A stretch of 56,522 nucleotides of DNA from a bacterium (GTDB taxonomy: Bacteria; Patescibacteriota; Patescibacteriia; Patescibacteriales; VMTK01), in contig JAUYAT010000057.1 in the NCBI GenBank assembly GCA_030693295.1, positions 1-56,522 of the forward strand, written 5' to 3'. This document shows, in pieces, positions 4,271 to 42,415 of this stretch; within the stretch, counting starts at the first letter, position 1, and every line of letters begins with the position of its first letter. The notes under the pieces were generated by a model. It saw only the letters and a list, made by a program, of their open reading frames with translations. It had not been told where the DNA came from and searched no databases. The translations under genes were made by a program, and so were the position numbers.

Positions 4271-4329
4271 TATTAAAATAATGCTAAAATTTAAATATAA
4301 GATTTATGTTAATAACTTTTATTAATAAC

Positions 4330-4698
4330 ATGAAGAAAATAATATTATTTTTATCTTTTTTCTCGCTTTTAATCCTTCTAACCTCAGTGGTGTCTGCTGC
4401 GACACAGACTAATCCTCAACCAAGCGCTACGGCCGGCACCGTCTCCCTCACCAACCCTCTCCCTGACACCTCTCCCCAAAAACTTATCGGCCTCGTTATT
4501 AAGGCCGTGTTGGGCATTGTCGGCTCTCTTGCCTTGGTTATGTTTATCTACGGCGGCTTTTTGTGGATGACCAGCGCCGGCAACGCGGAACAAGTGCAAA
4601 AAGGCAAAAATGTTTTAATCTGGGCAACGCTCGGGCTGGCTGTTATTTTTTCCGCCTACGCGCTGGTAAACTTTGTCATTAAAGGAATTGGAGCATAA
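4330..4698 (+). CDS. TrbC/VirB2-like (T4SS-pilin-like) small membrane protein, paralog 1
   Basis: Signal peptide, then two TM helices flanking YGGFLWMTSAGNAEQVQKGK. The same core is shared by eight other ORFs in the window. Start uncertain (4306 or 4330). Confidence 0.75.
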   Translation: MKKIILFLSFFSLLILLTSVVSAATQTNPQPSATAGTVSLTNPLPDTSPQKLIGLVIKAVLGIVGSLALVMFIYGGFLWMTSAGNAEQVQKGKNVLIWATLGLAVIFSAYALVNFVIKGIGA

Positions 4699-7078: not shown

Positions 7079-7516
7079 TTACCAGACCTCTCCGCTAATG
7101 GCCTTTCTTATCTCGTCAACGACAAAAAGAGTGATTGAAAAAGCCACTAAAATAATCACCAAGCCGATTATGCCTCTTGTAAGCTGGTCTTTGGCTTCCC
7201 TGACTTTTTCTTCATTGCCGGCCGCGGTCATCCATTTATAGCCGGCCGTGATGATGATAACCAAAAATATTATTCCCAACAGGCCTAAAACCACCTGTAT
7301 AATTCTGGCAACAATTACCCTTATGTCTTTTGGCGCGTCAGAACCGTAAACTTCGGTGCCAACCTCGCTTAACCCCCCCTCCTGAACCATGTTCCATAAA
7401 TTATTATCGACCGCGCTTACTTTAACCGCGCCAATGCCGCAGACCAAACAAAACTGCGCTAAAAGAGCGACAAATAAAATTATAAAGCTTAAAAAACGTT
7501 TTTTGGCAATTTTCAT
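7079..7516 (-). CDS. TrbC/VirB2-like small membrane protein, paralog 2
   Basis: Signal peptide plus TAGYKWMTAAGNEEKVREAKDQL core between two TM helices. ATG at 7516 chosen. Confidence 0.75.
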   Translation of the reverse strand: MKIAKKRFLSFIILFVALLAQFCLVCGIGAVKVSAVDNNLWNMVQEGGLSEVGTEVYGSDAPKDIRVIVARIIQVVLGLLGIIFLVIIITAGYKWMTAAGNEEKVREAKDQLTRGIIGLVIILVAFSITLFVVDEIRKAISGEVW

Positions 7517-7586
7517 ATTGTTTATGTTATAATTAAATAAGACTATAATTATATTATACTTAAAATCAATAAAAACTACAATCTTT

Positions 7587-9020
7587 ATGCGTTTATCCAC
7601 GAAAGTGGCCTACAATACGATAATACAAATTATCAGCAAAATCATTGCCACGATTTTGGGCCTGATAGCCATCGCCGTAATGGCGCGGTATTTGGGCCGG
7701 GAAGGATTTGGCCAATACACAACCATTGTCACATTTTTATCTTTTTTCGGCATTATAGCCGATCTCGGGCTTACTCTCATCACAGTGCAAATGATCAGCC
7801 AGCCGAATGTTGATGAAAATAAAATTTTAAGCAATCTTTTCAGCTTGCGCTTAATTTCAGCCGTTGTTTTTTTGGGGATCGCGCCTCTTACGGTAATCTT
7901 CTTCCCTTACGAGCCGATTATTAAGCTTGGCGTGGCAATCGCCTCGCTTTCTTTCTTTTTTATCGCTCTGAACCAAATTTTAACGGGTTTGTTCCAAAAA
8001 AATTTGCGCATGGACAAGGTTTCCATCGCCGAAGTGGCCGGCAAGATTATTTTAGCGGCGGGAGTAATTTTGGTTTATTATCTTGACCTGGGACTGCTTA
8101 ATATGCTCGTTGCCGCCGTCGCGGCCAGCGCTGTTAATTTTTTATTGCATTATCTGTTTTCCCGCCGGTTCGCCCGCATTAAATTGTGTTTTGATTTCGC
8201 GGTCTGGCGCGAAATCGCGAAAAAATCATGGCCGCTGGCAATAACCATTATTTTCAATCTGATTTATTTAAAAACCGACACCTTGCTTTTGTCGCTGATT
8301 AAGCGGCCGTCTGAAATCGGCATTATCGCCGAAGTCGGAATTTACGGCGCCGCTTATAGAGTTATTGATGTTTTGATTACTATGCCCTTTATGTTCGCCG
8401 GTCTTATCCTGCCGATCTTAACCGCCCGCTGGGCAAAAGGCGAAAAACAGGGCTTTAACAATGTCCTGCAAAAATCATTTGACATGATGGCTATGTTCGC
8501 CATCCCCTTGGTTGTCGGCGCGCAATTTACGGCTAAAGATATTATGGTTTTAGTGGCCGGGCCTGACTTTGAAGCATCCGGCCCGATTCTGCAAGTCTTA
8601 ATCGCGGCGGCCGGCATTATTTTTCTCGGGTGCATGTTCGCCCACGCGATAATAGCGCTTGACAAGCAAAAGAAAATAATCGGCTTTTATATTTTTACCG
8701 CTGTTACGGCGGTTATCGGCTATTTAATCCTTATACCCCGCTACTCCTATTTCGGCGCGGCCTGGGTGACAATCTACAGCGAGATTACTATCGCTTTGGC
8801 TTCTTTCTATTTGGTTTGGAAATACTCCGGATTTCTGCCGAGCTTAAAGCCAACCGCGAAAATTTTAGCCGCTTCGTTGGTTATGGCGGGCGCGCTTTAT
8901 TCAGCTTCCGGCTGGAATCTATTTTTAGCTTTAGCGCTGGCAACGGCGGTGTATTTTATAACGCTTTACTTATTTAAAGGGATAACAAAAGAGGATATAA
9001 CGAGCTTATTGAATAAATAA
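7587..9020 (+). CDS. MOP-superfamily polysaccharide/oligosaccharide flippase (Wzx/MurJ-like)
   Basis: 477 aa with about 14 TM segments. N-terminal pattern A.N...Q.....I...L......R.LG...G.Y is typical of the polysaccharide biosynthesis protein family. Confidence 0.8.
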   Translation: MRLSTKVAYNTIIQIISKIIATILGLIAIAVMARYLGREGFGQYTTIVTFLSFFGIIADLGLTLITVQMISQPNVDENKILSNLFSLRLISAVVFLGIAPLTVIFFPYEPIIKLGVAIASLSFFFIALNQILTGLFQKNLRMDKVSIAEVAGKIILAAGVILVYYLDLGLLNMLVAAVAASAVNFLLHYLFSRRFARIKLCFDFAVWREIAKKSWPLAITIIFNLIYLKTDTLLLSLIKRPSEIGIIAEVGIYGAAYRVIDVLITMPFMFAGLILPILTARWAKGEKQGFNNVLQKSFDMMAMFAIPLVVGAQFTAKDIMVLVAGPDFEASGPILQVLIAAAGIIFLGCMFAHAIIALDKQKKIIGFYIFTAVTAVIGYLILIPRYSYFGAAWVTIYSEITIALASFYLVWKYSGFLPSLKPTAKILAASLVMAGALYSASGWNLFLALALATAVYFITLYLFKGITKEDITSLLNK

Positions 9021-12097: not shown

Positions 12098-12282
12098 GGG
12101 CGCGTAGCTCAGCTGGTTAGAGCGCTTCGTTTATTCACCCGCCTAAAATTTTGGGCTCGTAGCTCAGTTGGTTAGAGCGTCTCGTTTACACCGAGAAGGT
12201 CTTCAGTTCGAGTCTGAACGAGCCCACAAAAATTTTGGCGGGCAAGCCGAAGAGGTCCAGGGTTCGATCCCTTGTGCGCCCA
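12098..12282 (+). tRNA. tRNA gene (Ile-like body) interrupted in the anticodon loop; outer member of a nested tRNA pair
   Basis: 5' half 12098-12129 (GGGCGCG, D-arm GCTC-AGCTGGTTA-GAGC, CTTCG). 3' half 12248-12282 (CGAAG, AGGTC, CAGGG-TTCGATC-CCTTG, TGCGCCC, A). All stems pair. 118 nt lie between the anticodon-stem strands. Confidence 0.6.
12153..12226 (+). tRNA. tRNA-Val(UAC), located inside the interrupted tRNA
   Basis: GGGCTCG/CGAGCCC acceptor, GCTC/GAGC D-stem, TCTCG-TTTACAC-CGAGA anticodon arm, TTCAG-TTCGAGT-CTGAA T-arm, discriminator A. Confidence 0.9.
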
Positions 12283-16136: not shown

Positions 16137-16562
16137 TTATGGACCGCCACCCGGACCAGCGTTGCCAGCCACTCCTCCCAAATTCTTAAACACAAAATAG
16201 GTAATGGCGTAGGCGGCGATTATGATTATTAAACCGATGATCGCCCGCTGAATCGTATCTTTGGCTTTCCTTATTTTTTCTTCGTCTCCGCCCGCGGTCA
16301 TCCACTCATAGCCGGCCGTAATCATTAAAATCAAAAAAATTATTCCCAAAAGCCCTAAAAACGCTTGAACTACCACGGCGATAACTCCGCCTATTGTGGT
16401 AGAGTCATCAAAACCGGCAAAAGCGCTAAAACCCTGCGCTTGCGATTCAATATCAGACGCGGTTTCATTACTTAACAGCCCTGCGGAAACAAAATTAAAA
16501 TTTAACAACAAAACTGCCGCTGGAATAATTAATAAATTAAATTTTTTAACATATTTATTCAT
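16137..16562 (-). CDS. TrbC/VirB2-like small membrane protein, paralog 3
   Basis: Signal peptide. Core TAGYEWMTAGGDEEKIRKAKDTIQRAIIGL between two TM helices. Gly/Pro-rich C-terminus. Confidence 0.8.
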   Translation of the reverse strand: MNKYVKKFNLLIIPAAVLLLNFNFVSAGLLSNETASDIESQAQGFSAFAGFDDSTTIGGVIAVVVQAFLGLLGIIFLILMITAGYEWMTAGGDEEKIRKAKDTIQRAIIGLIIIIAAYAITYFVFKNLGGVAGNAGPGGGP

Positions 16563-16571
16563 GCTGATTTT

Positions 16572-16958
16572 TTAACTTTCTATTAAATACTTAAAAACAA
16601 AATTCCAAATCGCGTAAGATCCGACAATAATAATCAAGCCGATAATCGCCCGCCACAGCGTGTCTTTCGCTTTCCTGATTTTTTCCTCTTCCCCGCCGGC
16701 AGTCATCCAGTTATAGCCGGCATAAAGAATCAGTATTATAAAAATAATGCCCAGTAAACTCAAAAACGCCTGAACTATTGTGCCGGCCATTACGGCAAAA
16801 GTTGTTTCGCTGTATGGCGCGTAGCCTCCTTCGCCTTCGCCGACTTTCTTCAGCTTGTCTAACGGCGCCGTGCTTTGCTGGGCAAACACAAAATAGGGCA
16901 AAATCAGTATCCCTACCAAGCAAGTTAAAATTAAAATTTGTTTAAATATTTTTTTCAT
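16572..16958 (-). CDS. TrbC/VirB2-like small membrane protein, paralog 4
   Basis: Core YAGYNWMTAGGEEEKIRKAKDTLWRAIIGL. The ORF-track N-terminus MTMD is read from a family A repeat, so ATG at 16958 is preferred. Confidence 0.8.
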   Translation of the reverse strand: MKKIFKQILILTCLVGILILPYFVFAQQSTAPLDKLKKVGEGEGGYAPYSETTFAVMAGTIVQAFLSLLGIIFIILILYAGYNWMTAGGEEEKIRKAKDTLWRAIIGLIIIVGSYAIWNFVFKYLIES

Positions 16959-16964
16959 ATCCAT

Positions 16965-17037
16965 TGTCATTCCCGCGAAAGCGGGAATCCAGATTCTATG
17001 CGCTAACTCCTGGATTCCCGCTTTCGCGGGAATGACA
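16965..17037. repeat. palindromic repeat family A, inverted pair
   Basis: TGTCATTCCCGCGAAAGCGGGAATCCAG, 14-nt spacer, CTCCTGGATTCCCGCTTTCGCGGGAATGACA. Confidence 0.85.
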
Positions 17038-17065
17038 GAATAGAATTATTCAATACTCTCAACTT

Positions 17066-17497
17066 CTATTGCGTTGATTTCAATGTTTGTTCGCCCAGCA
17101 TTTGAATCACGAAATAACTGATTGTATAAGCGGCTAAAACGATAATCAAGCCAATAACGGCAGCGGTAAGCAAATTTTTCGCTTTTTCCACTTGCTGTTC
17201 ATTGCCCCGCGCCGTCATCCACAAATAGCCGCCGTAAATAGTTAAAAGCAAAAACACAATGCCTAAAAAGGAAAGAGCGGCTTGGATTATTTTGGCAATC
17301 ATAGGCTCTATTTCGCTTTCAGTAAGCTTATAGCCGGCTTTATCCGCAACTTGCATAAGCGGTTGTTTTTCGTCCGAGGCATCAAACGCGTCTTTTAAAT
17401 TAGCGGCTGATATGCTCTGGCTGAAAATAAAAACAAACGCGCATAATAAAATTAAACTTGCTGTTAATATTAATTTTTTTGATAAAATTAAATTCAT
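17066..17497 (-). CDS. TrbC/VirB2-like small membrane protein, paralog 5
   Basis: Core YGGYLWMTARGNEQQVEKAKNLLTAAVIGL. Signal peptide. Confidence 0.8.
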   Translation of the reverse strand: MNLILSKKLILTASLILLCAFVFIFSQSISAANLKDAFDASDEKQPLMQVADKAGYKLTESEIEPMIAKIIQAALSFLGIVFLLLTIYGGYLWMTARGNEQQVEKAKNLLTAAVIGLIIVLAAYTISYFVIQMLGEQTLKSTQ

Positions 17498-17499
17498 AA

Positions 17500-17889
17500 C
17501 TAATTCGGCAAAAAATTATAGATTGTATAAGTTATCCCGTAAGCCGCCAAAACCACAATTAAGCCGATTACAGCGTCTTTAATTACGCCTTTGGCTTTTT
17601 CCACCTGCTGTTCATTGCCGGCCGCCGTCATCCACAAATAGCCGCCGTAAATCATTAACATTAAAAAAATTACCCCTAAAAACGCCAAAACTCCGTTAAC
17701 GGCTTGCCCTATTAATTCGGCAGGGGTTTTATCTTTTAGCCCCGCCATTTCAGCATGCCCGGTGCCTTCAGCAGTGGCCTTTAGGCCTTTTTCAAACTGG
17801 GTTTCCGCAAAAATAAAATTTATATTAAATATGAACAATAAGCTAACTGCAATAAATAAACGCGCGGATATAGCCAATAATTTTGTCAT
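17500..17889 (-). CDS. TrbC/VirB2-like small membrane protein, paralog 6
   Basis: Core YGGYLWMTAAGNEQQVEKAKGVIKDAVIGL. 2-nt gap to the next paralog implies co-transcription. Confidence 0.8.
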   Translation of the reverse strand: MTKLLAISARLFIAVSLLFIFNINFIFAETQFEKGLKATAEGTGHAEMAGLKDKTPAELIGQAVNGVLAFLGVIFLMLMIYGGYLWMTAAGNEQQVEKAKGVIKDAVIGLIVVLAAYGITYTIYNFLPN

Positions 17890-17970
17890 AATTAGTTACT
17901 GCGTAAAAAATCTATTTATCAAAATTTTTTCTTCAACAGGCTTTAAGCTTGAATTACAAAATATCTATTT

Positions 17971-18354
17971 CTACCCGCCGCTGGTCTGGCCGAATATTCC
18001 GCCGACATATTTTGTTATGGCGTAAGCTGATAAAACTATCACCAAGCCGATTACCGCTGAAATAATCAAATCCTTTGCCTTGGTAACCTGCTGTTCATTG
18101 CCCCGCGCCGTCATCCATAAAAGCCCGCCGTAAATAATCAAAAGAAAAAAGATGACGCCGATAAAAGCCAGGCCGGCGCCGACAACTTTACCGATTGTTA
18201 ACGATATGTCTTTATCTTTCGTAGACAATTCGGCCGCTCCGGCAGTTGCCTCCAAGCCGTATTTATCATCCGCTAAAACAATACTTTGAGTTAACGCGAA
18301 AAAAGCCAAAAGCAATAAAATAATGATTAAAAAAATTTTTTTCTTAATAAACAT
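17971..18354 (-). CDS. TrbC/VirB2-like small membrane protein, paralog 7
   Basis: Core YGGLLWMTARGNEQQVTKAKDLIISAVIGL. The ORF-track N-terminus MEHEKF.. is read from the heptad repeat, so ATG at 18354 (MFIKKK) is preferred. Confidence 0.75.
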   Translation of the reverse strand: MFIKKKIFLIIILLLLAFFALTQSIVLADDKYGLEATAGAAELSTKDKDISLTIGKVVGAGLAFIGVIFFLLIIYGGLLWMTARGNEQQVTKAKDLIISAVIGLVIVLSAYAITKYVGGIFGQTSGG

Positions 18355-18381
18355 AAAATACAATATTTTATCAGCTATTCT

Positions 18382-18475
18382 TTGCATTACCCCTAACACA
18401 AATTTTTCATGTTCCATGTTTTATGTTAGCGGCAATGCAGAGATATTTTATATCTCCGCATTATTTTATTTTAAC
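18382..18475. repeat. intergenic module: GCATTACCCCTAACACAAATTTTT, CCATGTT heptads, GTTAGCGGC, hairpin
   Basis: Shares its order and most bases with 18951-19075. The heptads are the same family as at 5148-5184. Confidence 0.65.
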
Positions 18476-18490
18476 AAACTGTTTTATCAA

Positions 18491-18880
18491 CTAAACATTG
18501 GCAGTCGCTTCAAGCAGGATGTCGATAACGTATGTTGCCAGACCCCAGGCGGCTAAAATAATTATCAAGCCGATTACGCCGGCGGCCAGTAATTTCTTGG
18601 CTTCAGCCACTTTATCTTCACTTCCGGCCGCTGTCATCCATTTGAAGCCGGCAAACAAAATAAGCACTACGGCGATGATGCCCAGAAAGCCCAATGCCAC
18701 ATTAATCACGCTGCCGGCGATTACTCTCGGATCTTCAGTGCCTAAGCCGATCTCGGCTTCAACAGCTTCTTTTGTTCCTCCCCATGGATCCACTTGGGCT
18801 AAAACCGGGGTGGCGACCGTGAGCGCAATCGCCATTACCATGGCAAAGGCGATTAAATTTTTAAATAATTTCTTGTTCAT
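18491..18880 (-). CDS. TrbC/VirB2-like small membrane protein, paralog 8
   Basis: Core FAGFKWMTAAGSEDKVAEAKKLLAAGVIGL. Signal peptide ending VLAQ. About 85% identical (hand count) to paralog 9. Confidence 0.8.
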   Translation of the reverse strand: MNKKLFKNLIAFAMVMAIALTVATPVLAQVDPWGGTKEAVEAEIGLGTEDPRVIAGSVINVALGFLGIIAVVLILFAGFKWMTAAGSEDKVAEAKKLLAAGVIGLIIILAAWGLATYVIDILLEATANV

Positions 18881-18950
18881 TTGTCACCCCCTTTCTTAAA
18901 TCAGTCGTGAAACTGAATTTTAAGAATTAATTATATATTATTTATTTTAT

Positions 18951-19075
18951 TCTCCGCATCACCCCTAACACAAATTTTTTTATTCCATGTTCTATGTTCC
19001 TTGTTTTATGTTTTATGTTAGCGGCAATGCAGAGATGTAAAACATCTCTCTGCATTGTTTTTATTTTAATAAACC
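18951..19075. repeat. second copy of the heptad/hairpin intergenic module
   Basis: TCTCCGCATCACCCCTAACACAAATTTTT, TTCCATGTTCTATGTTCCTTGTTTTATGTTTTATGTTAGCGGC, hairpin GCAATGCAGAGATGT-AAAA-CATCTCTCTGCATTG, T-run. Confidence 0.65.
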
Positions 19076-19091
19076 GTTCTGTTAACTATGG

Positions 19092-19481
19092 TTAGACCGC
19101 GCCAGTTGCTTCAAGCAGGATGTCTATAACGTAAGTGGCCAATCCCCATGAAGCTAAAACAATTACCAAGCCGATTACGCCTGCGGCCATCAGCTTTTTG
19201 GCTTCAGCCACCTTGTCTTCACTGCCGGCCGCAGTCATCCATTTGAAGCCTCCCAGTAAGACAATAACCACTGCGATAATACCCAAAAAGCCCAGCATTA
19301 CATTAATTACGGCGCCGGCGATTACTCTCGGGTCTTCGCTGCCTAAGCCGATTTTAGTGTCAACAACATCTTTTGTTCCTCCCCATGGATCCACTTGGGC
19401 TAAAACCGGGGTGGCGACCGTGAGCGCAATCGCCATTACCATGGCAAAGGCGATTAAATTTTTAAATACTTTCTTGTTCAT
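19092..19481 (-). CDS. TrbC/VirB2-like small membrane protein, paralog 9
   Basis: Core LGGFKWMTAAGSEDKVAEAKKLMAAGVIGL. Recent tandem duplicate of paralog 8. Confidence 0.8.
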   Translation of the reverse strand: MNKKVFKNLIAFAMVMAIALTVATPVLAQVDPWGGTKDVVDTKIGLGSEDPRVIAGAVINVMLGFLGIIAVVIVLLGGFKWMTAAGSEDKVAEAKKLMAAGVIGLVIVLASWGLATYVIDILLEATGAV

Positions 19482-30160: not shown

Positions 30161-30186
30161 TTTGACAATGCAAACAATAATTAATT

Positions 30187-30310
30187 TGGTCTCGGCACAG
30201 TCTCCTCGCAAGGGACTGTGCCGCCGTGAATTTTTATTTTAATAATTTTTTGGTCTCGGCATTTTTTGGTCTCGGCACAGTCTCCTCGCAAGGGACTGTG
30301 CCGCCGTGAA
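30187..30310. repeat. two tandem REP hairpins plus a partial copy
   Basis: TTGGTCTCGGCACAGTCTCCTCGCAAGGGACTGTGCCGCCGTGAA at 30187-30230 and 30267-30310. Partial TTGGTCTCGGCA at 30250-30261. Confidence 0.85.
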
Positions 30311-30315
30311 ATTTT

Positions 30316-30867
30316 TTAAAAATCCATAATATCTACCGCGTAATACCCCTTGCCTAAAATATAATTAGACGCGCTTGAATATAAGTATTCTTCCGGATTC
30401 TCCGCTAAACCCCATTTTTCATGGCAAGGGTTGTTATGAATATAATTTAATTTCTGTAAAAAGAATTTTTGCGACTGGATTATTAATGAATCAAACCTTT
30501 TCTTAAACACTTTATGTTTTGCGTTACTCTTGACATCGGCCTTTGCTTTGAAAAAATTCAGCATTTCTCTATTTCCGTCCTTTTCCAGTTGAGCCACTAT
30601 TCCATAGGCTAAAAATCTTTTGGCGTTTTGCGTTAATTTTGAAATATCCGGCGCTGCTGTTGACAGTTTAATTATACAATGCAGATGATTGGGCATTATT
30701 ACATAGCCGTAAATTTTATTGCCGTATTTATCGCGCATGTAATCAAACCATTTATAAACCAATGAGCAATATTTATCGCTGATAAAAATATGCTTCCAAT
30801 CTAATATTGTAAAAGTAACAAAATATATTTCATTATTTGTATTTGTTATTTTAACCCGTACTGCCAT
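30316..30867 (-). CDS. IS200/IS605-like Y1 (HUH) transposase, RAYT type
   Basis: YVIMPNHLHCII (HUH motif) and YIHNNP (catalytic Tyr region). 183 aa. Confidence 0.85.
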   Translation of the reverse strand: MAVRVKITNTNNEIYFVTFTILDWKHIFISDKYCSLVYKWFDYMRDKYGNKIYGYVIMPNHLHCIIKLSTAAPDISKLTQNAKRFLAYGIVAQLEKDGNREMLNFFKAKADVKSNAKHKVFKKRFDSLIIQSQKFFLQKLNYIHNNPCHEKWGLAENPEEYLYSSASNYILGKGYYAVDIMDF

Positions 30868-30892
30868 AAATTAATATTTTTACTGCTCATTG

Positions 30893-30934
30893 CCGCGGCA
30901 CAGTCCCTTGAGAGGAGATTGTGTCGAGACCGAA
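30893..30934. repeat. inverted REP copy upstream of the RAYT gene
   Basis: CCGCGGCACAGTCCCTTGAGAGGAGATTGTGTCGAGACCGAA, an imperfect reverse complement of the 30187 REP. Confidence 0.8.
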
Positions 30935-30992
30935 TGTAATAAAGTTCAAGTGCAATGTGGTCGGAGCAAAGCGGAGAAGTTGCCGAGCCGAG

Positions 30993-32884: not shown

Positions 32885-33029
32885 TAATATTAGCAAAATA
32901 TTTATTATGCTGTATTAAATTTTCTTTAATATTAGCGATATTATTTTTATTTTTGTTTAATATTAGCGATATTATTTATCATTTTACCTAATATTAGCCA
33001 TATTATTTATAGTTTTGTTTAATATTAGC
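32885..33029 (+). repeat. iteron-like TAATATTAGC(G/C)ATATTATTTAT repeats, four copies at an exact 31-bp period plus one upstream
   Basis: TAATATTAGC at 32885, 32927, 32958, 32989 and 33020. The last ends 15 nt before the nested tRNA locus. Another copy is at 34921-34930. Confidence 0.8.
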
Positions 33030-33044
33030 GATTAATTCCTTTTT

Positions 33045-33255
33045 GCCCTCGTAGTTTCCGCCCAAGGCGGATCAGCCTCTGGCTGACAATAGGTACCTGC
33101 CCGCCATGGCCTGAGCCCCCGTAGTTTAATGGATAGAATAGGAGACTCCTAAGCTCTAGATAGAGGTTCGATTCCTCTCGGGGGCACAGGCGATGGCAGG
33201 CGGGGAATAGGAAACTCCTAAGCTTTATATAGAGGTTCGATTCCTCTCGAGGGCA
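33045..33255 (+). pseudogene. tRNA-Arg(CCU)-like gene split in the D-arm; outer member of a second nested tRNA pair, anticodon stem degenerate
   Basis: 5' piece GCCCTCG-TA-GTTT (33045-33057). 3' piece GAAT-A-GGAAA-CTCCTAA-GCTTT-ATAT-AGAGG-TTCGATT-CCTCT-CGAGGGC-A (33205-33255). The acceptor stem pairs perfectly, with a compensatory T5/A68 change relative to the inner gene. Confidence 0.5.
33115..33186 (+). tRNA. tRNA-Arg(CCU)
   Basis: GCCCCCG/CGGGGGC acceptor, D-arm GTTT-AATGGATA-GAAT, anticodon arm GGAGA-CTCCTAA-GCTCT (one A-G mismatch), T-arm AGAGG-TTCGATT-CCTCT, discriminator A. Confidence 0.8.
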
Positions 33256-33326: not shown

Positions 33327-33470
33327 ACTCCGCCCTGCCCCTCCTCTTATACAAGAGGAGGGAACAATTCCCCAAGCCATCTCCTTAAATAAGAGGAGGG
33401 AATTATGAGCAGGTGTTATTTCATCCCCTCCTCTAAGATTAGAGGAGGGCAAGGGAGGAGTTGACGGACG
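33327..33470. repeat. composite hairpin repeat family B, unit 1 (upstream of DUF559 gene)
   Basis: AACTCCGCCCTGCCCCTCC...GGAGGGCAAGGGAGGAGTT outer inverted repeat encloses three CCCTCCTCT-N-AGAGGAGGG hairpins. Confidence 0.8.
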
Positions 33471-33513
33471 GGAAGACAGCATATGGTATTTAAAAAAAAC
33501 AAACAATCATCTT

Positions 33514-33903
33514 ATGTCCCAAGTATTTAATTTGCCACATCAAAAAGCATTAAGAAGAAAATTAAGGAAGCAGGAAGTTGGAGCAGAAAAGAAATTATGG
33601 CATAGATTAAAGCTTGATCAACTTGGTTTTAGATTTCGCCGGCAATACGGAATTGGAAAATATATAGTGGATTTTTATTGCCCATTATTAAAATTAGCGA
33701 TAGAGCTTGATGGTGCAACCCATTCTACCAATGAAGAAATAAAAGATGATATTAAAAGGCAAAAATATTTAGAAAATTTAGGATTAACAGTTAAAAGATA
33801 TTTAAACATTGATGTATATGAAAATTTGGACACGGTGATTGATGATATTTATAAAAGTTGTATATTTTTAAAATCAAAAATAAAAGATGGGAGCGAGAAG
33901 TAA
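33514..33903 (+). CDS. DUF559 / Vsr-like endonuclease-domain protein
   Basis: E..LW..L......G..FRRQ..IG.YIVDFYC....LAIELDG..H pattern typical of DUF559 (restriction-endonuclease-like fold). Confidence 0.85.
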   Translation: MSQVFNLPHQKALRRKLRKQEVGAEKKLWHRLKLDQLGFRFRRQYGIGKYIVDFYCPLLKLAIELDGATHSTNEEIKDDIKRQKYLENLGLTVKRYLNIDVYENLDTVIDDIYKSCIFLKSKIKDGSEK

Positions 33904-33910
33904 GTTTTTT

Positions 33911-34125
33911 TACTCCACCCCAGCCCTCCTCTTAAACAAGAGGAGGGGGTTACTTCACCCCGTCCTTTCTCTTATCAAAGAGGAGGGAACTATGAGCAGG
34001 TATTATTTCGTCCCCTCCTCTAAGATTAGAGGAGGGCAAGGGAGGAGTTGACGAACGTGCTTTTACTCCGCCCTGCCCCTCCTCTTATACAAGAGGAGGG
34101 AACTATATTAAACAAGAAGAGGGGA
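33911..34125. repeat. composite hairpin repeat family B, unit 2 plus a partial unit 3
   Basis: 33911-34056 is a direct repeat of 33327-33470 with scattered substitutions. 34063-34110 repeats the first hairpin again. Confidence 0.8.
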
Positions 34126-34196
34126 TGAGCGCGTATGTTTGCAAAATGTTAATAATATATTATACTTAAAAATAGCATAAATCAAAAATTTTAAGC

Positions 34197-34270
34197 GGGC
34201 CATTAGCTCAGTTGGCTAGAGCGCTTCCATGGCATGGAAGAGGCCAAGGGTTCAAGTCCCTTATGGTCCA
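34197..34270 (+). tRNA. tRNA-Ala(GGC)
   Basis: Acceptor GGGCCAT/ATGGTCC with the G3-U70 Ala identity pair, anticodon arm CTTCC-ATGGCAT-GGAAG, T-arm AAGGG-TTCAAGT-CCCTT. Confidence 0.9.
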
Positions 34271-34296
34271 CATTGGTATATGTATCTACATAATTT

Positions 34297-34875
34297 ATGC
34301 AAAAAAGAATTTTTATAATTCACGGTTGGGACGGTTATCCCGAAGAAGGGTGGTTTCCTTGGCTTAAAAAAGAATTAGAAACAAGGGGATTTGATGTTTT
34401 CGTGCCGCAGCTTCCTAAACCGGATGAACCGAGAATCAATAGTTGGGTGCCAAAACTTAAAGAGGTTGTAGGAATTCCAGATGATAAAACTTATTTTGTC
34501 GGTCACAGTATGGGTTGCCAGACAATTGCCCGCTACTTGGAAACATTGCCAGAAAACACAAAAGTTGGTGGCGCGGTTTTTATTGCCGGTTTTTTTAAAC
34601 GGCTCACAAATCTTGAAGATGACGATGTTGTCCGCAGTGTTTCTGAAGAATGGCTTAAAACGCCAATAAATCTCAAAAAGGTAAAAACTCATCTCAAAAA
34701 GAGCGTGGCTATTTTTTCTGACGACGATCCGTATGTTCCTTTGGATAATAAAGAAGAATTTGCTGATGCGTTGGGGGCAAAAATAGTAATTGAACATAAC
34801 AAGGGGCATTTTTGTGATAGCGTTGATATGGAATTATCAGTTGCTCTTAAGTCAGTGCTGGAAATAGCCGTATAG
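34297..34875 (+). CDS. RBBP9/YdeN-family alpha/beta serine hydrolase
   Basis: IFIIHGW...PEEGWFPWLK..L, nucleophile elbow GHSMG, C-terminal D...GHF. Confidence 0.8.
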   Translation: MQKRIFIIHGWDGYPEEGWFPWLKKELETRGFDVFVPQLPKPDEPRINSWVPKLKEVVGIPDDKTYFVGHSMGCQTIARYLETLPENTKVGGAVFIAGFFKRLTNLEDDDVVRSVSEEWLKTPINLKKVKTHLKKSVAIFSDDDPYVPLDNKEEFADALGAKIVIEHNKGHFCDSVDMELSVALKSVLEIAV

Positions 34876-34935
34876 TCTTTTGCTCCACATAGAATATATT
34901 AAATTTTTTATTTATTCGTGTAATATTAGCAAAAT

Positions 34936-35250
34936 ATGATATTTACTGATCAAAATTTTAATCAAGAAGTTGAAAATTATAACGGATTGGCATTAGTGGA
35001 TTTTTTTGCGGAATGGTGCGGGCCTTGCAAATTATTGGCGCCGGTTATTGATGAGTTGATTGAAGAATATAAAGGCAAAAGTGTAAAAATCGGCAAATTA
35101 AATGTTGATGAAAATAAAGAGATTGCCGAGAAATATAATATTATGGGCATACCCGCGATAATTATATTTAAAGAAGGGAAAATTGTCGTACAATTAACCG
35201 GCTATCAGCCGAAAGAGACATTGAAAGAATTGATTGACAAAAATATATAA
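34936..35250 (+). CDS. trxA: thioredoxin
   Basis: VDFFAEWCGPCKLLAP active site, 104 aa. Confidence 0.92.
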   Translation: MIFTDQNFNQEVENYNGLALVDFFAEWCGPCKLLAPVIDELIEEYKGKSVKIGKLNVDENKEIAEKYNIMGIPAIIIFKEGKIVVQLTGYQPKETLKELIDKNI

Positions 35251-35276
35251 ATATGTTTTTATATAAATTATTATAA

Positions 35277-35358
35277 TTTAAAGTCTACATTTTTGTAGAC
35301 TTTAAATTGTTTTTGCTTAATTTTGGCTTAAAGTGGATAAGTCCACAATACTGTGGAC
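35277..35358. repeat. second locus of GTC(T/C)ACA palindromes plus a DnaA-box-like site
   Basis: TTTAAAGTCTACATTTTTGTAGACTTTAAA (35277-35305). AGTGGATAA (35332-35340, 8 of 9 to TGTGGATAA). Perfect palindrome GTCCACAATACTGTGGAC (35341-35358). Confidence 0.65.
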
Positions 35359-35450
35359 TAAAAATTGAGTGATTGGCTAATGTTAGCTAATTTTGTTTTT
35401 GGGGATAATCTGGGGAAAAATAGAAAAAATAAGGAATAAATAAATTTTTT

Positions 35451-35495
35451 AACTCCACCCCAACCCTCCTTTTATACAAAAGGAGGGAATAATGT
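35451..35495. repeat. solo partial copy of repeat family B
   Basis: TTAACTCCACCCCAACCCTCCTTTTATACAAAAGGAGGG. Confidence 0.7.
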
Positions 35496-41088: not shown

Positions 41089-42415
41089 CACTAGTGTCGC
41101 GTTAAAAATCAAATAATCTTAGCTGTTTTTTTGAAAATTCATCGCAATTTTGTAATTCCGTTTCAGAAAGCAGCGTATTTACGAGGGTTTTCTCGAATTG
41201 GGATACTGACAAAATTTGTAGAATTTCGTAGAGATTTCTCTTGATGCCTAATTTCTTTTTCATAATAGCAACCAGTAGAAAAGCGCACAAAGCGATGCAG
41301 ATTTGCGTCTTGACCGCGTTCGCCGAATAGCCCCAGAATACTTCAATCCGCAAATGCTGTTTAATCCATTTAAAGAATAATTCAATCTGCCAGCGATGCT
41401 TGTATAAGTCTGCGATTTTCTTCGCGTCAAGATTGAAGTGATTCGTCAGATAAGTATAGTATTTGCTCGTTTCAACGTCATAATATTTTATCCGCCTCAA
41501 TTTTTTCGGATAATATTTTTTAGAATAAAAGTGTTTCAGTTTAATAATCTGATCGCAGCGCAGTCCGGTTGATTTATCAACTTTATTTGAATACATTCTC
41601 TTGCATGATAAACTGCCTTTCGCGCGAATAACAAAAAATGCTTTTTGCCGATCGATTTTGAATAATCTCTCGAAGTCGAAGTAGCCGCGATCCATTATGT
41701 AGAACGCGCCTGCTTCAAACTCGAGAACATCCAGAAAGTTAACATCATGCGTTTTGGCCTCTGTTATGAGGAAAAACGAAGGAATATTGCCGCGTAAATC
41801 CAGTTGCGTATGAATTTTTACCGCTGATTTTCCCAGTTCGAAATAGGCCCATTTGAATGTCGCCAGGCACAACTCAATTACCGTCGAATCGAGCGCGTAA
41901 ACCGCGCCGTCAAGTTCGATGCTGAAATCATTGTCGTTGACATATAATTTTCTAGCCCGTCCAATTAATATTTGAGCCAAATCCCGATAGATCTGCCAGT
42001 CGCGATTTTCATTAGCGCGCGCCAATGTCGACAACATGAAATTATCAATTTTAAAGCCGAGGTGATACAATAAATTTGAATGAGCGTTCAAACACAAGAC
42101 GATGTTGCGCAGGCTGTGCAAGTTGGTCAGCTGACCGAACGCCAACGCGAGGAATTGATCACGACAGCTTAAATTACGAACACGATTGTTGCCGCAGTAA
42201 CGTTTAACGCATTTATCGAGTTCATATTGAGTGACAAATTCAATGATTTGCGCAAAAATATATTTTCCTTGGTTCATAGATAATTAACTTAATTTATTAA
42301 ATTATGCGCTAATTATCTCATTGAAAATTCAAATCGTAAAATTTTAAAAAGAGCAATTTATATTTAATATTAAATAATATTTTTTAAAATCTTTTTGCTT
42401 AACGCGACACTAGTG
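41089..42415 (-). mobile_element. IS4-family insertion sequence (1327 bp)
   Basis: Perfect 17-bp terminal inverted repeats CACTAGTGTCGCGTTAA (41089-41105) and TTAACGCGACACTAGTG (42399-42415). Flanks GCCGATACG / ACCGATTCG look like a decayed 9-bp target duplication. Confidence 0.85.
41102..42277 (-). CDS. IS4-family DDE transposase
   Basis: N-terminal MNQGKYIFAQIIEF..F.C.DQFL...FGQL....SLR pattern, DDE residues (YALDST, IMDRGY) and the IS4 hallmark Y-(2)-R-(3)-E-(6)-K in YKHRWQIELFFKWIK. Confidence 0.9.
   Translation of the reverse strand: MNQGKYIFAQIIEFVTQYELDKCVKRYCGNNRVRNLSCRDQFLALAFGQLTNLHSLRNIVLCLNAHSNLLYHLGFKIDNFMLSTLARANENRDWQIYRDLAQILIGRARKLYVNDNDFSIELDGAVYALDSTVIELCLATFKWAYFELGKSAVKIHTQLDLRGNIPSFFLITEAKTHDVNFLDVLEFEAGAFYIMDRGYFDFERLFKIDRQKAFFVIRAKGSLSCKRMYSNKVDKSTGLRCDQIIKLKHFYSKKYYPKKLRRIKYYDVETSKYYTYLTNHFNLDAKKIADLYKHRWQIELFFKWIKQHLRIEVFWGYSANAVKTQICIALCAFLLVAIMKKKLGIKRNLYEILQILSVSQFEKTLVNTLLSETELQNCDEFSKKQLRLFDF

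Follow-up and report, generated by a model that had tools for sequence, protein, structure and literature searches.

In the 56.5-kb stretch of bacterial DNA analysed here (the window, ~38% G+C), the locus at 33045-33255 contains one tRNA-Arg(CCU) gene inside another. The outer gene, 72 nt long, is cut exactly between nucleotides 21 and 22 by a 109-bp segment (33096-33204), which consists of a 19-nt arm beginning with CCTGCCCGCC, an intact tRNA-Arg(CCU) and an 18-nt arm ending with GGCAGGCGGG. On the strength of the comparisons described below, we propose that this segment is probably a copy of a family of small, non-autonomous mobile cassettes that destroy a resident tRNA gene and replace it with the one they carry as cargo. 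The class appears to be widespread and so far undescribed, as neither tRNA-in-tRNA nesting nor these arms were found in the full-text literature that we searched, the coverage of which was limited.

The Arg(CCU) nest is made up of the following parts, all on the forward strand.

33045-33057 (+): nucleotides 1-13 of the outer, putatively resident tRNA-Arg(CCU), GCCCTCGTAGTTT, comprising the acceptor 5' strand GCCCTCG, TA and the D-stem strand GTTT; pairs with 33249-33255.
33058-33087 (+): 30-nt double hairpin between outer nucleotides 13 and 14, made of CCGCC-CAA-GGCGG (33058-33070), AT, CAGCC-TCT-GGCTG (33073-33085) and AC.
33088-33095 (+): remainder of the outer D-loop, nucleotides 14-21, a D-loop-like octamer AATAGGTA; the equivalent in the inner gene is AATGGATA.
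33096-33114 (+): 5' arm (X) of the cassette, CCTGCCCGCCATGGCCTGA; pairs with 33187-33204.
33115-33186 (+): cargo, an intact tRNA-Arg(CCU) called by ARAGORN and by Rfam (tRNA, 62.9 bits against a threshold of 29).
33187-33204 (+): 3' arm (Y) of the cassette, CAGGCGATGGCAGGCGGG; pairs with the 5' arm.
33205-33255 (+): nucleotides 22-73 of the outer tRNA-Arg(CCU), with a weakened anticodon stem (nhmmer E = 4.7e-10, model positions 22-73).

Every element that a previous sequence-only reading of this DNA had listed for the nest was recovered in its place, including the enclosing 18-bp helix, in which 33096-33113 and 33187-33204 form 15 Watson-Crick pairs and one G-U pair, with two mismatches over the 18 positions. 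The cargo at 33115-33186 is, we infer, the functional gene. Once both insertions are taken out, the spliced outer gene measures 72 nt and differs from the inner gene at 7 positions, among them the C5T/G68A pair in the acceptor stem and G30A and C42T, which weaken the anticodon stem, and it is no longer a normal tRNA call in ARAGORN (no normal anticodon loop). The whole 221 nt folds as the nested design at -102.8 kcal/mol (z = -6.4), a value that none of 200 shuffles matched. Rfam scans of the nest region, both at the gathering threshold and at E <= 1, returned tRNA and no other RNA family, and the 109-bp element contains no open reading frame (ORF).

Taken alone, the 13-nt 5' piece of the outer gene is not significant, since at least three matches with no more than two mismatches occurred in 13 of 100 shuffles. 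We nevertheless accept it as real because it pairs with the 3' end of the outer gene and because relatives have homologous 5' pieces. The sequence-only reading had named a chance match, unconserved in relatives, as what would undo the nest; instead, homologous 21-nt 5' pieces ending at model position 21 were present at seven relatives' loci, six of them found by profile search (L021, L032, L047, L069, L075 and L010) and one by direct reading (L081). In addition, a Logan assembly (L001) is identical to the window at the nest, and the species-level match of the window, GenBank metagenome-assembled genome (MAG) contig JAHIME010000061.1 of 'Patescibacteria group bacterium KR13_N2.mb.53' (L008), has the same layout with 3 substitutions; the nest is therefore no artefact of assembly.

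We retrieved the syntenic locus from 80 species-representative genomes via alignment of the neighbouring diacylglycerol-kinase-like (DAGK) protein, homologues of which are annotated as proteins of Patescibacteria, Parcubacteria or Falkowbacteria MAGs, and inspected each tRNA-Arg(CCU) together with its flanking sequence. Genes here follow a conserved order, thioredoxin / tRNA-Ala(GGC) / tRNA-Arg(CCU) / bactofilin / DAGK, and in the majority of genomes the locus carries a plain tRNA-Arg(CCU) gene. The arrangement of 5' fragment, complete tRNA and 3' fragment, which the sequence-only reading had suggested looking for at the tRNA loci of relatives, indeed recurs as a full nest in six further species (L007, L010, L032, L047, L075 and L081). 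Its layout is an outer 5' piece ending in GGATA, an arm beginning with CCTGCCCGCC, the inner tRNA, an arm ending in GGC(A/T)GGCGGG, and an outer 3' piece beginning with GAAC. The break lies at model positions 21/22 in 8 further loci, as located by profile search and, for L081, by direct reading. Partial forms were also observed: three loci retain only the 5' piece and the 5' arm (L021, L069 and L054), three retain only the 3' arm and 3' remnants (L012, L025 and L020), and L046 has kept both arms and lost the outer 3' piece. At L010 (5360-5000, minus strand), three to four concentric tRNA-Arg(CCU) layers, each with its own arms, surround one another, and each older layer is more degraded than the layer inside it. 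The nested state is patchy on the host tree built from DAGK: all full nests except L032 have plain-gene nearest neighbours (62-85% amino-acid identity), and the nearest neighbour of L032 is L021, which carries a half remnant.

Other arrangements were seen as well. At L097 (2290-2970), five tandem copies, 100% identical to one another, of a 70-nt unit consisting of the 5' arm, the outer 5' exon and the double hairpin lie upstream of the functional tRNA-Arg(CCU), after which only two 3' arms and exons follow; this array implies unequal recombination or slippage among nest layers. A tRNA-like gene at L013 (7579-7734), with intact acceptor and T-arm, carries an AT-rich, ~85-nt insert with one hairpin after its D-arm, a different kind of interruption from the GC-rich cassettes. 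At L070 (5600-5697), a tRNA-Arg(UCG) sits in a perfect 12-bp leader/trailer helix, CCCGGACATTGC / GCAATGTCCGGG, that extends its acceptor stem; these arms differ from the cassette arms, and no outer tRNA pieces accompany them.

Which of the two tRNA genes is the older resident can be read from their identities. The spliced outer gene of L032 is identical at 72/72 positions to the uninterrupted gene of L043 and L044, compared with 64/72 for its inner gene, and in L075 the outer gene matches the L076 gene at 65/72 positions and the inner gene at 54/72. The acceptor stems tell the same story. GCCCTCG/CGAGGGC, the outer stem of the window, is the ordinary stem of uninterrupted tRNA-Arg(CCU) genes in L011, L017, L020, L038, L043 and L044, whereas GCCCCCG/CGGGGGC (or GCCCCTG) is that of the inner genes in L007, L075, L069, L032, L081 and the window. 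By this distribution, the two acceptor stems of the window are two alleles, both found in relatives, and C5T/G68A, earlier taken as a compensatory change, is no evidence that the outer gene has been maintained since the insertion. Moreover, the identity of the cassettes (arms plus cargo) is decoupled from the divergence of their hosts: it amounts to 93% between the window and L075 and 91% between L075 and L081, against DAGK identities of 47% and 40%, respectively. Because of the outer and inner identities in L032 and L075, the stem alleles and this decoupling, we regard the outer gene as the resident and the arm-tRNA-arm unit as the incomer; for L032 at least, the comparison shows the outer gene to be the host's own.

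The same arms occur far beyond this locus. Scanning metagenome contigs with the pattern CCTGCCCGCC N{52,80} GTTCRA N{15,40} GGCAGGCGGG, which demands both arm ends, returned at least 120 stretches, and the 10-nt end of the 5' arm was found in these and in 7 syntenic loci. The exact-arm pattern had no match in IMG/VR viral contigs, and a phage origin of the cassette was set aside on that ground. The junction statistics below refer to 115 non-redundant copies among the matches listed; the contigs have 34-51% G+C. At least 27 tRNA species serve as cargo (five Arg, three Thr, four Leu, three Val, three Pro, two Ile, two Gln and two Ala, together with Gly, Asn and Cys), and practically all of the 115 copies are flanked on either side by one half of an outer tRNA that matches the cargo in type and orientation. 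Once the cassette is taken out precisely, ARAGORN calls a tRNA across the junction in 64 copies, 56 of them with the anticodon of the cargo; the other 51 outer genes are not callable. Outer and inner genes are 58-99% identical (median 76%).

In 104 clear cases the insertion site could be assigned to the D-arm or D-loop (61), the anticodon loop (36) or the T-loop (7), and almost all insertion points are loop-coding or lie within 2 nt of a loop. They fall, for example, at 37/38 in Val and Ala, 35/36 in Pro, Ile and Thr, and 34/35 in Cys and Asn, and within the T-loop at TTC|GA in Gln and Gly. The point is not fixed for a given tRNA type, as cassettes occur in Arg-CCU at 21, 23 and 37. None of the 115 junction pairs shows a target duplication or a loss of target, nor do the junctions share any flanking or target sequence apart from a bias towards A before the arm (81/115), which is confounded with tRNA type and does not amount to a fixed tetranucleotide.

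Two cassettes sharing 92% identity or more can lie between strongly divergent outer exons, with flanks that do not align. L176 and L177 differ at 0/73 positions of the inner gene and at 24/34 and 35/62 of the exons; L142 and L196 carry near-identical cassettes (inner 1/83) in unrelated contexts; and between the window and L075 the differences are 0/19 and 1/17 in the arms, 7/73 in the inner gene, and 9/23 and 14/52 in the exons. Nearly the same Thr(CGU) cassette (inner 3/74) is inserted at nucleotide 23 in L122 and at nucleotide 35 in L135. The arm helix is conserved, including a conserved C-A mismatch, and in Ile(GAU) cassettes both arms vary in their inner parts (CTG/CAG, TCA/TGA, CCG/CGG). 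Cargo-less hairpins of 30-40 nt with the same ends (CCTGCCCGC...GCAGGCGGG) are present in relatives' intergenic DNA and also within the T-loops of outer exons. Read side by side, these copies show the cassette to be a discrete unit with fixed ends that spreads horizontally.

Changes accumulate in the outer copy. The window and L008 differ by 3 changes within the outer 3' piece of 51 nt, by many past its end, and by none in the 215 nt before it, which include the upstream repeats, the 5' piece, the hairpins, the arms and the inner tRNA. Among the closely related L118, L157 and L185, damage to the outer gene consists of a deletion in the D-loop, a mismatch in the acceptor and an internally deleted stretch of ~25-30 nt, and the cargo of L118 and L157 has changed at no more than 3/74 nt. 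The outer anticodon loops of L081, L093 and L132 are mutated, that of L081 to CTTTTAA with a T-loop of TTGGATT, and we found no locus with more than one intact outer layer. Judged by the strain-level changes in the outer 3' piece and by its weakened anticodon stem, the outer Arg gene of the window is at a decaying stage, as the sequence-only reading had suspected.

Small perfect GC hairpins are another feature of the outer exons, being found in 12/115 of the upstream and 20/115 of the downstream exons, compared with 3.6-4.8% of control windows, and hairpin pairs like that at 33058-33087 also occur in the outer exons of L097, L115, L201 and L197. Our interpretation is that the double hairpin of the window would be a secondary insertion into, or a footprint in, a dead outer copy. 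We also observed the hairpin TCCGCC-NNN-GGCGGA at the anticodon position of the outer Thr-CGU 3' exons of L122, L091, L180 and L207; this is the site of the near-identical full cassette in L135, and the hairpin may be the footprint of an earlier insertion.

A second nest lies in the window at 12098-12282, as the sequence-only reading had noted, and it proved real on re-analysis. Its parts, again on the forward strand, are as follows.

12098-12133 (+): 5' part of an outer tRNA-Val-like gene, up to the anticodon loop (family D16).
12134-12152 (+): degenerate 5' arm TTCACCCGCCTAAAATTTT, with the arm end TTCACCCGCC.
12153-12226 (+): cargo, an intact tRNA-Val(UAC) (ARAGORN; Rfam 71.5 bits).
12227-12246 (+): degenerate 3' arm CAAAAATTTTGGCGGGCAAG, with the arm end GGCGGGCAAG.
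12247-12282 (+): 3' part of the outer tRNA-Val-like gene; the excised form has a 5-nt anticodon loop.

Here the insertion is in the anticodon loop of the Val-like outer gene, the T-stem and anticodon stem of which differ from those of the inner Val gene by paired changes. Exact excision leaves an anticodon loop of 5 nt, and the outer Val-like gene is therefore probably dead.

We suggest the following course of events for such self-replacing cassettes. Insertion would kill a resident, single-copy essential gene. The cargo would then be transcribed from the resident promoter, released by ordinary 5' and 3' tRNA processing, and substitute for the gene that was killed, so that only cognate, sense-oriented insertions would survive. 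The clamp helix formed by the arms is predicted to extend the acceptor stem of the cargo, with one unpaired base on each side in between; being GC-rich, it may keep the fold of the cargo apart from the near-identical outer halves, and it might serve as an entry site of the RNase III type. The outer copy would subsequently decay, and recombination between direct repeats, pairing either the 5' part of the inner gene with the outer 5' piece or its 3' part with the outer 3' piece, could remove one or both sides; the half-forms are what such recombination predicts. The tandem array of L097 is the converse case, an amplification. Recombination could also return a plain gene open to renewed invasion, which would account for layered nests. 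The bias towards loops we attribute to the mechanism of insertion, because selection for loop positions cannot act through an outer gene that is dead. In the most speculative step, the target may be recognised as a folded single strand, that is, the gene's own cloverleaf, by a trans-acting, structure-specific enzyme, and the same putative enzyme would also recognise the stem of the cassette. The sequence-only reading had left a choice between the recurrent insertion of a small tRNA-bearing unit and a processing scaffold; the comparative data favour the former, and the loss or degradation of outer pieces around intact inner tRNAs speaks against the latter.

Several observations weigh against the cassette interpretation. 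After exact excision, over half of the outer genes keep an intact cloverleaf, as would be predicted for a spliced intron. Some insertion points lie 1-2 nt inside the 3' strand of the D-stem and not in a loop. For the unconstrained parts of the arms, duplex energies were weakly in favour of cognate pairs (-5.2 kcal/mol, versus -4.2 kcal/mol for non-cognate pairs), a difference that is small because most arms share one consensus. The interpretation gives no account of how one arm pair came to surround at least 27 different cargos. The hosts known to be Patescibacteria are the named MAGs only, not the metagenome contigs, and no candidate for the mobilising enzyme was found among the window genes checked (the Y1-like ORF, the insertion sequence (IS) and the DUF559 gene described below). 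Of these, DUF559 and the Y1-like ORF were rejected as mobilisers on the ground that they occur only in this species' loci and not at other nested loci, with flanking repeats unrelated to the arms, and the IS at 41089-42415 on the ground that its terminal inverted repeats are unrelated to the arms. Also discarded as the origin of the nest was homologous recombination involving a cassette in circular or linear form, since its models predict a tandem tRNA-Y-X-tRNA arrangement and not nests.

It is conceivable, though somewhat improbable, that the same selfish cassette moves without any transposition enzyme, by homologous recombination after DNA uptake, with the donor's outer exons serving as homology arms. 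Such homing by transformation would account, without added assumptions, for targets that are always cognate and in the same orientation and for the near-absence of cassettes from intergenic DNA, and also for nesting inside the inner copy (L010) and for the 21/22 point shared by most Arg cassettes; furthermore, the T-stem AGAAG/CTTCT is common to the inner gene of L032 and its host-type outer gene, which recombination or conversion would be expected to produce. However, near-identical cassettes are found at different positions (L122 at nucleotide 23 and L135 at nucleotide 35; Arg-CCU at 21, 23 and 37), which exon-guided recombination cannot yield. The homology arms would measure only ~21-50 nt, and the restriction to loops, the conserved arms and the first origin of each cargo type would all be left unaccounted for. 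The main rival, a new bacterial tRNA intron with a functional outer gene, seems to us quite unlikely. According to this explanation, the CCUGCCCGCC/GGCAGGCGGG helix is cut at its base and the exons are ligated by a protein enzyme, so that Patescibacteria would possess a tRNA splicing pathway acting at D-, anticodon- and T-loops, and a nest would yield two tRNAs per transcript, the inner released by RNase P and 3' processing and the outer by splicing. The insertions are indeed exact and confined to loop regions, like archaeal non-canonical introns; the 56 outer genes mentioned above regain a cloverleaf with the same anticodon, though being only ~76% identical to the cargo; the helix is conserved together with its C-A mismatch; and the extra hairpins in outer exons resemble multi-intron tRNA genes. 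On the other hand, there is no bulge-helix-bulge (BHB), the junctions facing each other at the blunt base of one helix, and the outer genes are often broken, given the 51 that are not callable and the mutated anticodon loops of L081, L093 and L132. Strain-level and close-relative differences fall on the outer exons, half-forms without one exon persist, and ~1.7 Mb yielded no stand-alone tRNA gene whose only interruption is a cargo-less hairpin. In the excised outer gene of the window, the anticodon stem is weakened and the D-loop GG is shifted, and two genes with the same anticodon would bring no obvious benefit in at least 27 tRNA species.

That the outer halves and the helix are selected as a scaffold aiding the transcription, folding or processing of the inner tRNA, or its stability, is highly improbable. 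The nested fold is very stable, and the Ile(GAU) arms stay paired through changes on both sides; but most relatives have a plain gene at the same locus, the outer pieces decay or vanish on one side while the inner tRNA remains intact, and the outer sequence tracks the host lineage and not the cassette. A local accident or artefact, whether a collapsed tandem duplication, a mis-assembly or a one-off duplication, is suggested by the mere 7/72 positions that distinguish inner from outer gene in the window, and its chance is practically negligible, as three independent assemblies (the window, L001 and L008) agree, the break is exact and without overlap, and the same architecture and arm ends recur across many species and tRNA types.

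Besides the two nests, the window encodes DnaA, the DNA polymerase III beta subunit, a class A penicillin-binding protein, PNPase, ribosomal protein L19, TsaE, TrmD and YidC. A scan for promoters and terminators around the Arg nest gave no more sites than shuffles did. Directly upstream of the outer tRNA-Arg, at 32888-33032, are four to five tandem 31-nt repeats with TAATATTAGC(G/C)AT, and near-palindromic motifs of the GCTAATATTAGC type are present in multiple copies beside tRNA-Arg and tRNA-Ala loci in many relatives (e.g. L004, L024, L033, L034 and L038); these repeats and motifs may form a putative array of binding sites. Downstream, a hairpin resembling repetitive extragenic palindromes (REPs), CCTCCTCTTATACAAGAGGAGGG, occurs in six copies at 33327-35493. 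The DUF559 gene (33514-33903), with a Vsr-like endonuclease fold, is bracketed by 87-nt direct repeats (33384-33470 and 33971-34057, 92% identical) in a cassette-like arrangement and is absent from the syntenic locus of other species. The Y1-transposase-like ORF at 30316-30867 (minus strand), which resembles REP-associated tyrosine transposases (RAYTs) and gives a weak match to PF01797, is flanked (30186-30935) by hairpin repeats of its own, GGCACAGTCYCC...GGGACTGTGCC, unrelated to the tRNA cassette arms. The IS element at 41089-42415 encodes a DDE_Tnp_1 and DUF4372 transposase (41102-42277, minus strand) between perfect 17-bp terminal inverted repeats CACTAGTGTCGCGTTAA. Eight paralogous small ORFs (~130-170 aa) at 4306-4698, 7079-7600 and 16137-19481 match T4SS_pilin (PF18895); six are arranged head to tail in a single array, the copies being separated by conserved DNA repeats. 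The ORF at 4673-5098 matches the 23S rRNA-intervening-sequence protein / bAvd-like family PF05635, a family that often accompanies diversity-generating retroelements; the 56.5-kb window showed no reverse transcriptase.

If the cassette interpretation is true, the tRNA genes of a large bacterial radiation would be mobile units that repeatedly overwrite their own orthologues, and a selfish element would need no coding capacity, because its cargo is the very essential gene that it destroys. This would account for the rapid, phylogenetically incongruent turnover of tRNA sequences in Patescibacteria and for the tRNA pseudogene debris beside tRNA genes. Since tRNA gene finders report only the inner gene, such nests are silently missed. 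It would further point to an enzyme that recognises folded tRNA-gene DNA or a conserved stem, and would provide a bacterial counterpart to the debate on a mobile-element origin of archaeal disrupted, split and intron-bearing tRNA genes.

Integrative elements, namely phages, integrative and conjugative elements and genomic islands, also target tRNA genes, restore a functional tRNA and leave a tRNA fragment as a scar. Like them, the cassette targets a tRNA gene and brings a replacement. They are, however, kilobase-sized, encode an integrase, substitute just the 3' part and give rise to a direct repeat (att), whereas the cassette of 109 bp encodes no protein, carries a complete tRNA, has no repeat at its junctions and leaves the old gene as two halves. 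In being small, non-coding and present in many copies, with terminal inverted repeats that form a hairpin, the cassette resembles REPs, their paired forms (REPINs) and miniature inverted-repeat transposable elements; in contrast to these, it causes no target duplication, has an essential gene as cargo and has the cognate gene as target. A direct REP/RAYT relationship is not seen in the window, where the Y1-like ORF is flanked by a different REP family. Elements of the IS200/IS605 type insert without duplication 3' of a fixed 4-5-nt target and have a separate subterminal hairpin at each end; the cassette agrees with them in lacking a duplication and departs from them in having no fixed target and ends that pair with each other in place of separate hairpins. 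The double hairpin at 33058-33087 resembles the double-hairpin elements and GC clusters of fungal mitochondria, which are short GC-rich hairpin pairs in an AT-rich genome and also occur in structural RNA genes, although lineage and sequence differ; those elements are not known to carry genes. Group I introns located within the tRNA genes of bacteria, including tRNA-Arg(CCU), are mobile insertions as well, on whose removal the exons are restored exactly. They are ribozymes of ~200 nt or more in the anticodon loop, unlike the 109-nt insert of the nest, which lies in the D-loop at nucleotides 21/22 and yields no group I core in Rfam covariance scans.

Among archaea, tRNA introns at non-canonical positions, transposition of introns in Thermoproteales, and split and permuted tRNA genes have been described (PMC4090602, PMC4390854, PMC3218864). 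The nest shares with these introns exact interruptions in the D-, anticodon- and T-loop regions and related inserts in different tRNA genes, and GC-rich complementary sequences hold the halves of archaeal disrupted tRNA genes together, as they do here. The exon-intron boundaries of archaeal introns form a BHB of two 3-nt bulges with a 4-bp helix between them, which is cleaved by the endonuclease EndA (PMC7714728). In the nest, both junctions lie at the blunt base of a continuous 18-bp helix, and its 3' side abuts outer nucleotide 22 directly. Neither an EndA-type endonuclease nor an RNA ligase was seen among the scanned ORFs of the 56-kb window, which is part of the genome. The archaeal genes give one functional tRNA, whereas the nest has a bacterial host, no BHB, a whole second tRNA inside and an outer gene that decays. 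Known DNA transposons that insert inside tRNA genes are the Dada elements of eukaryotes, in which each family has its own fixed insertion site within one tRNA or snRNA gene; they encode a DDE transposase, make target duplications of 6-7 bp and depend on hundreds of redundant target copies (PMC3706591). Unlike Dada, the cassette has neither protein nor duplication, and it supplies its own replacement copy of the gene that it enters.

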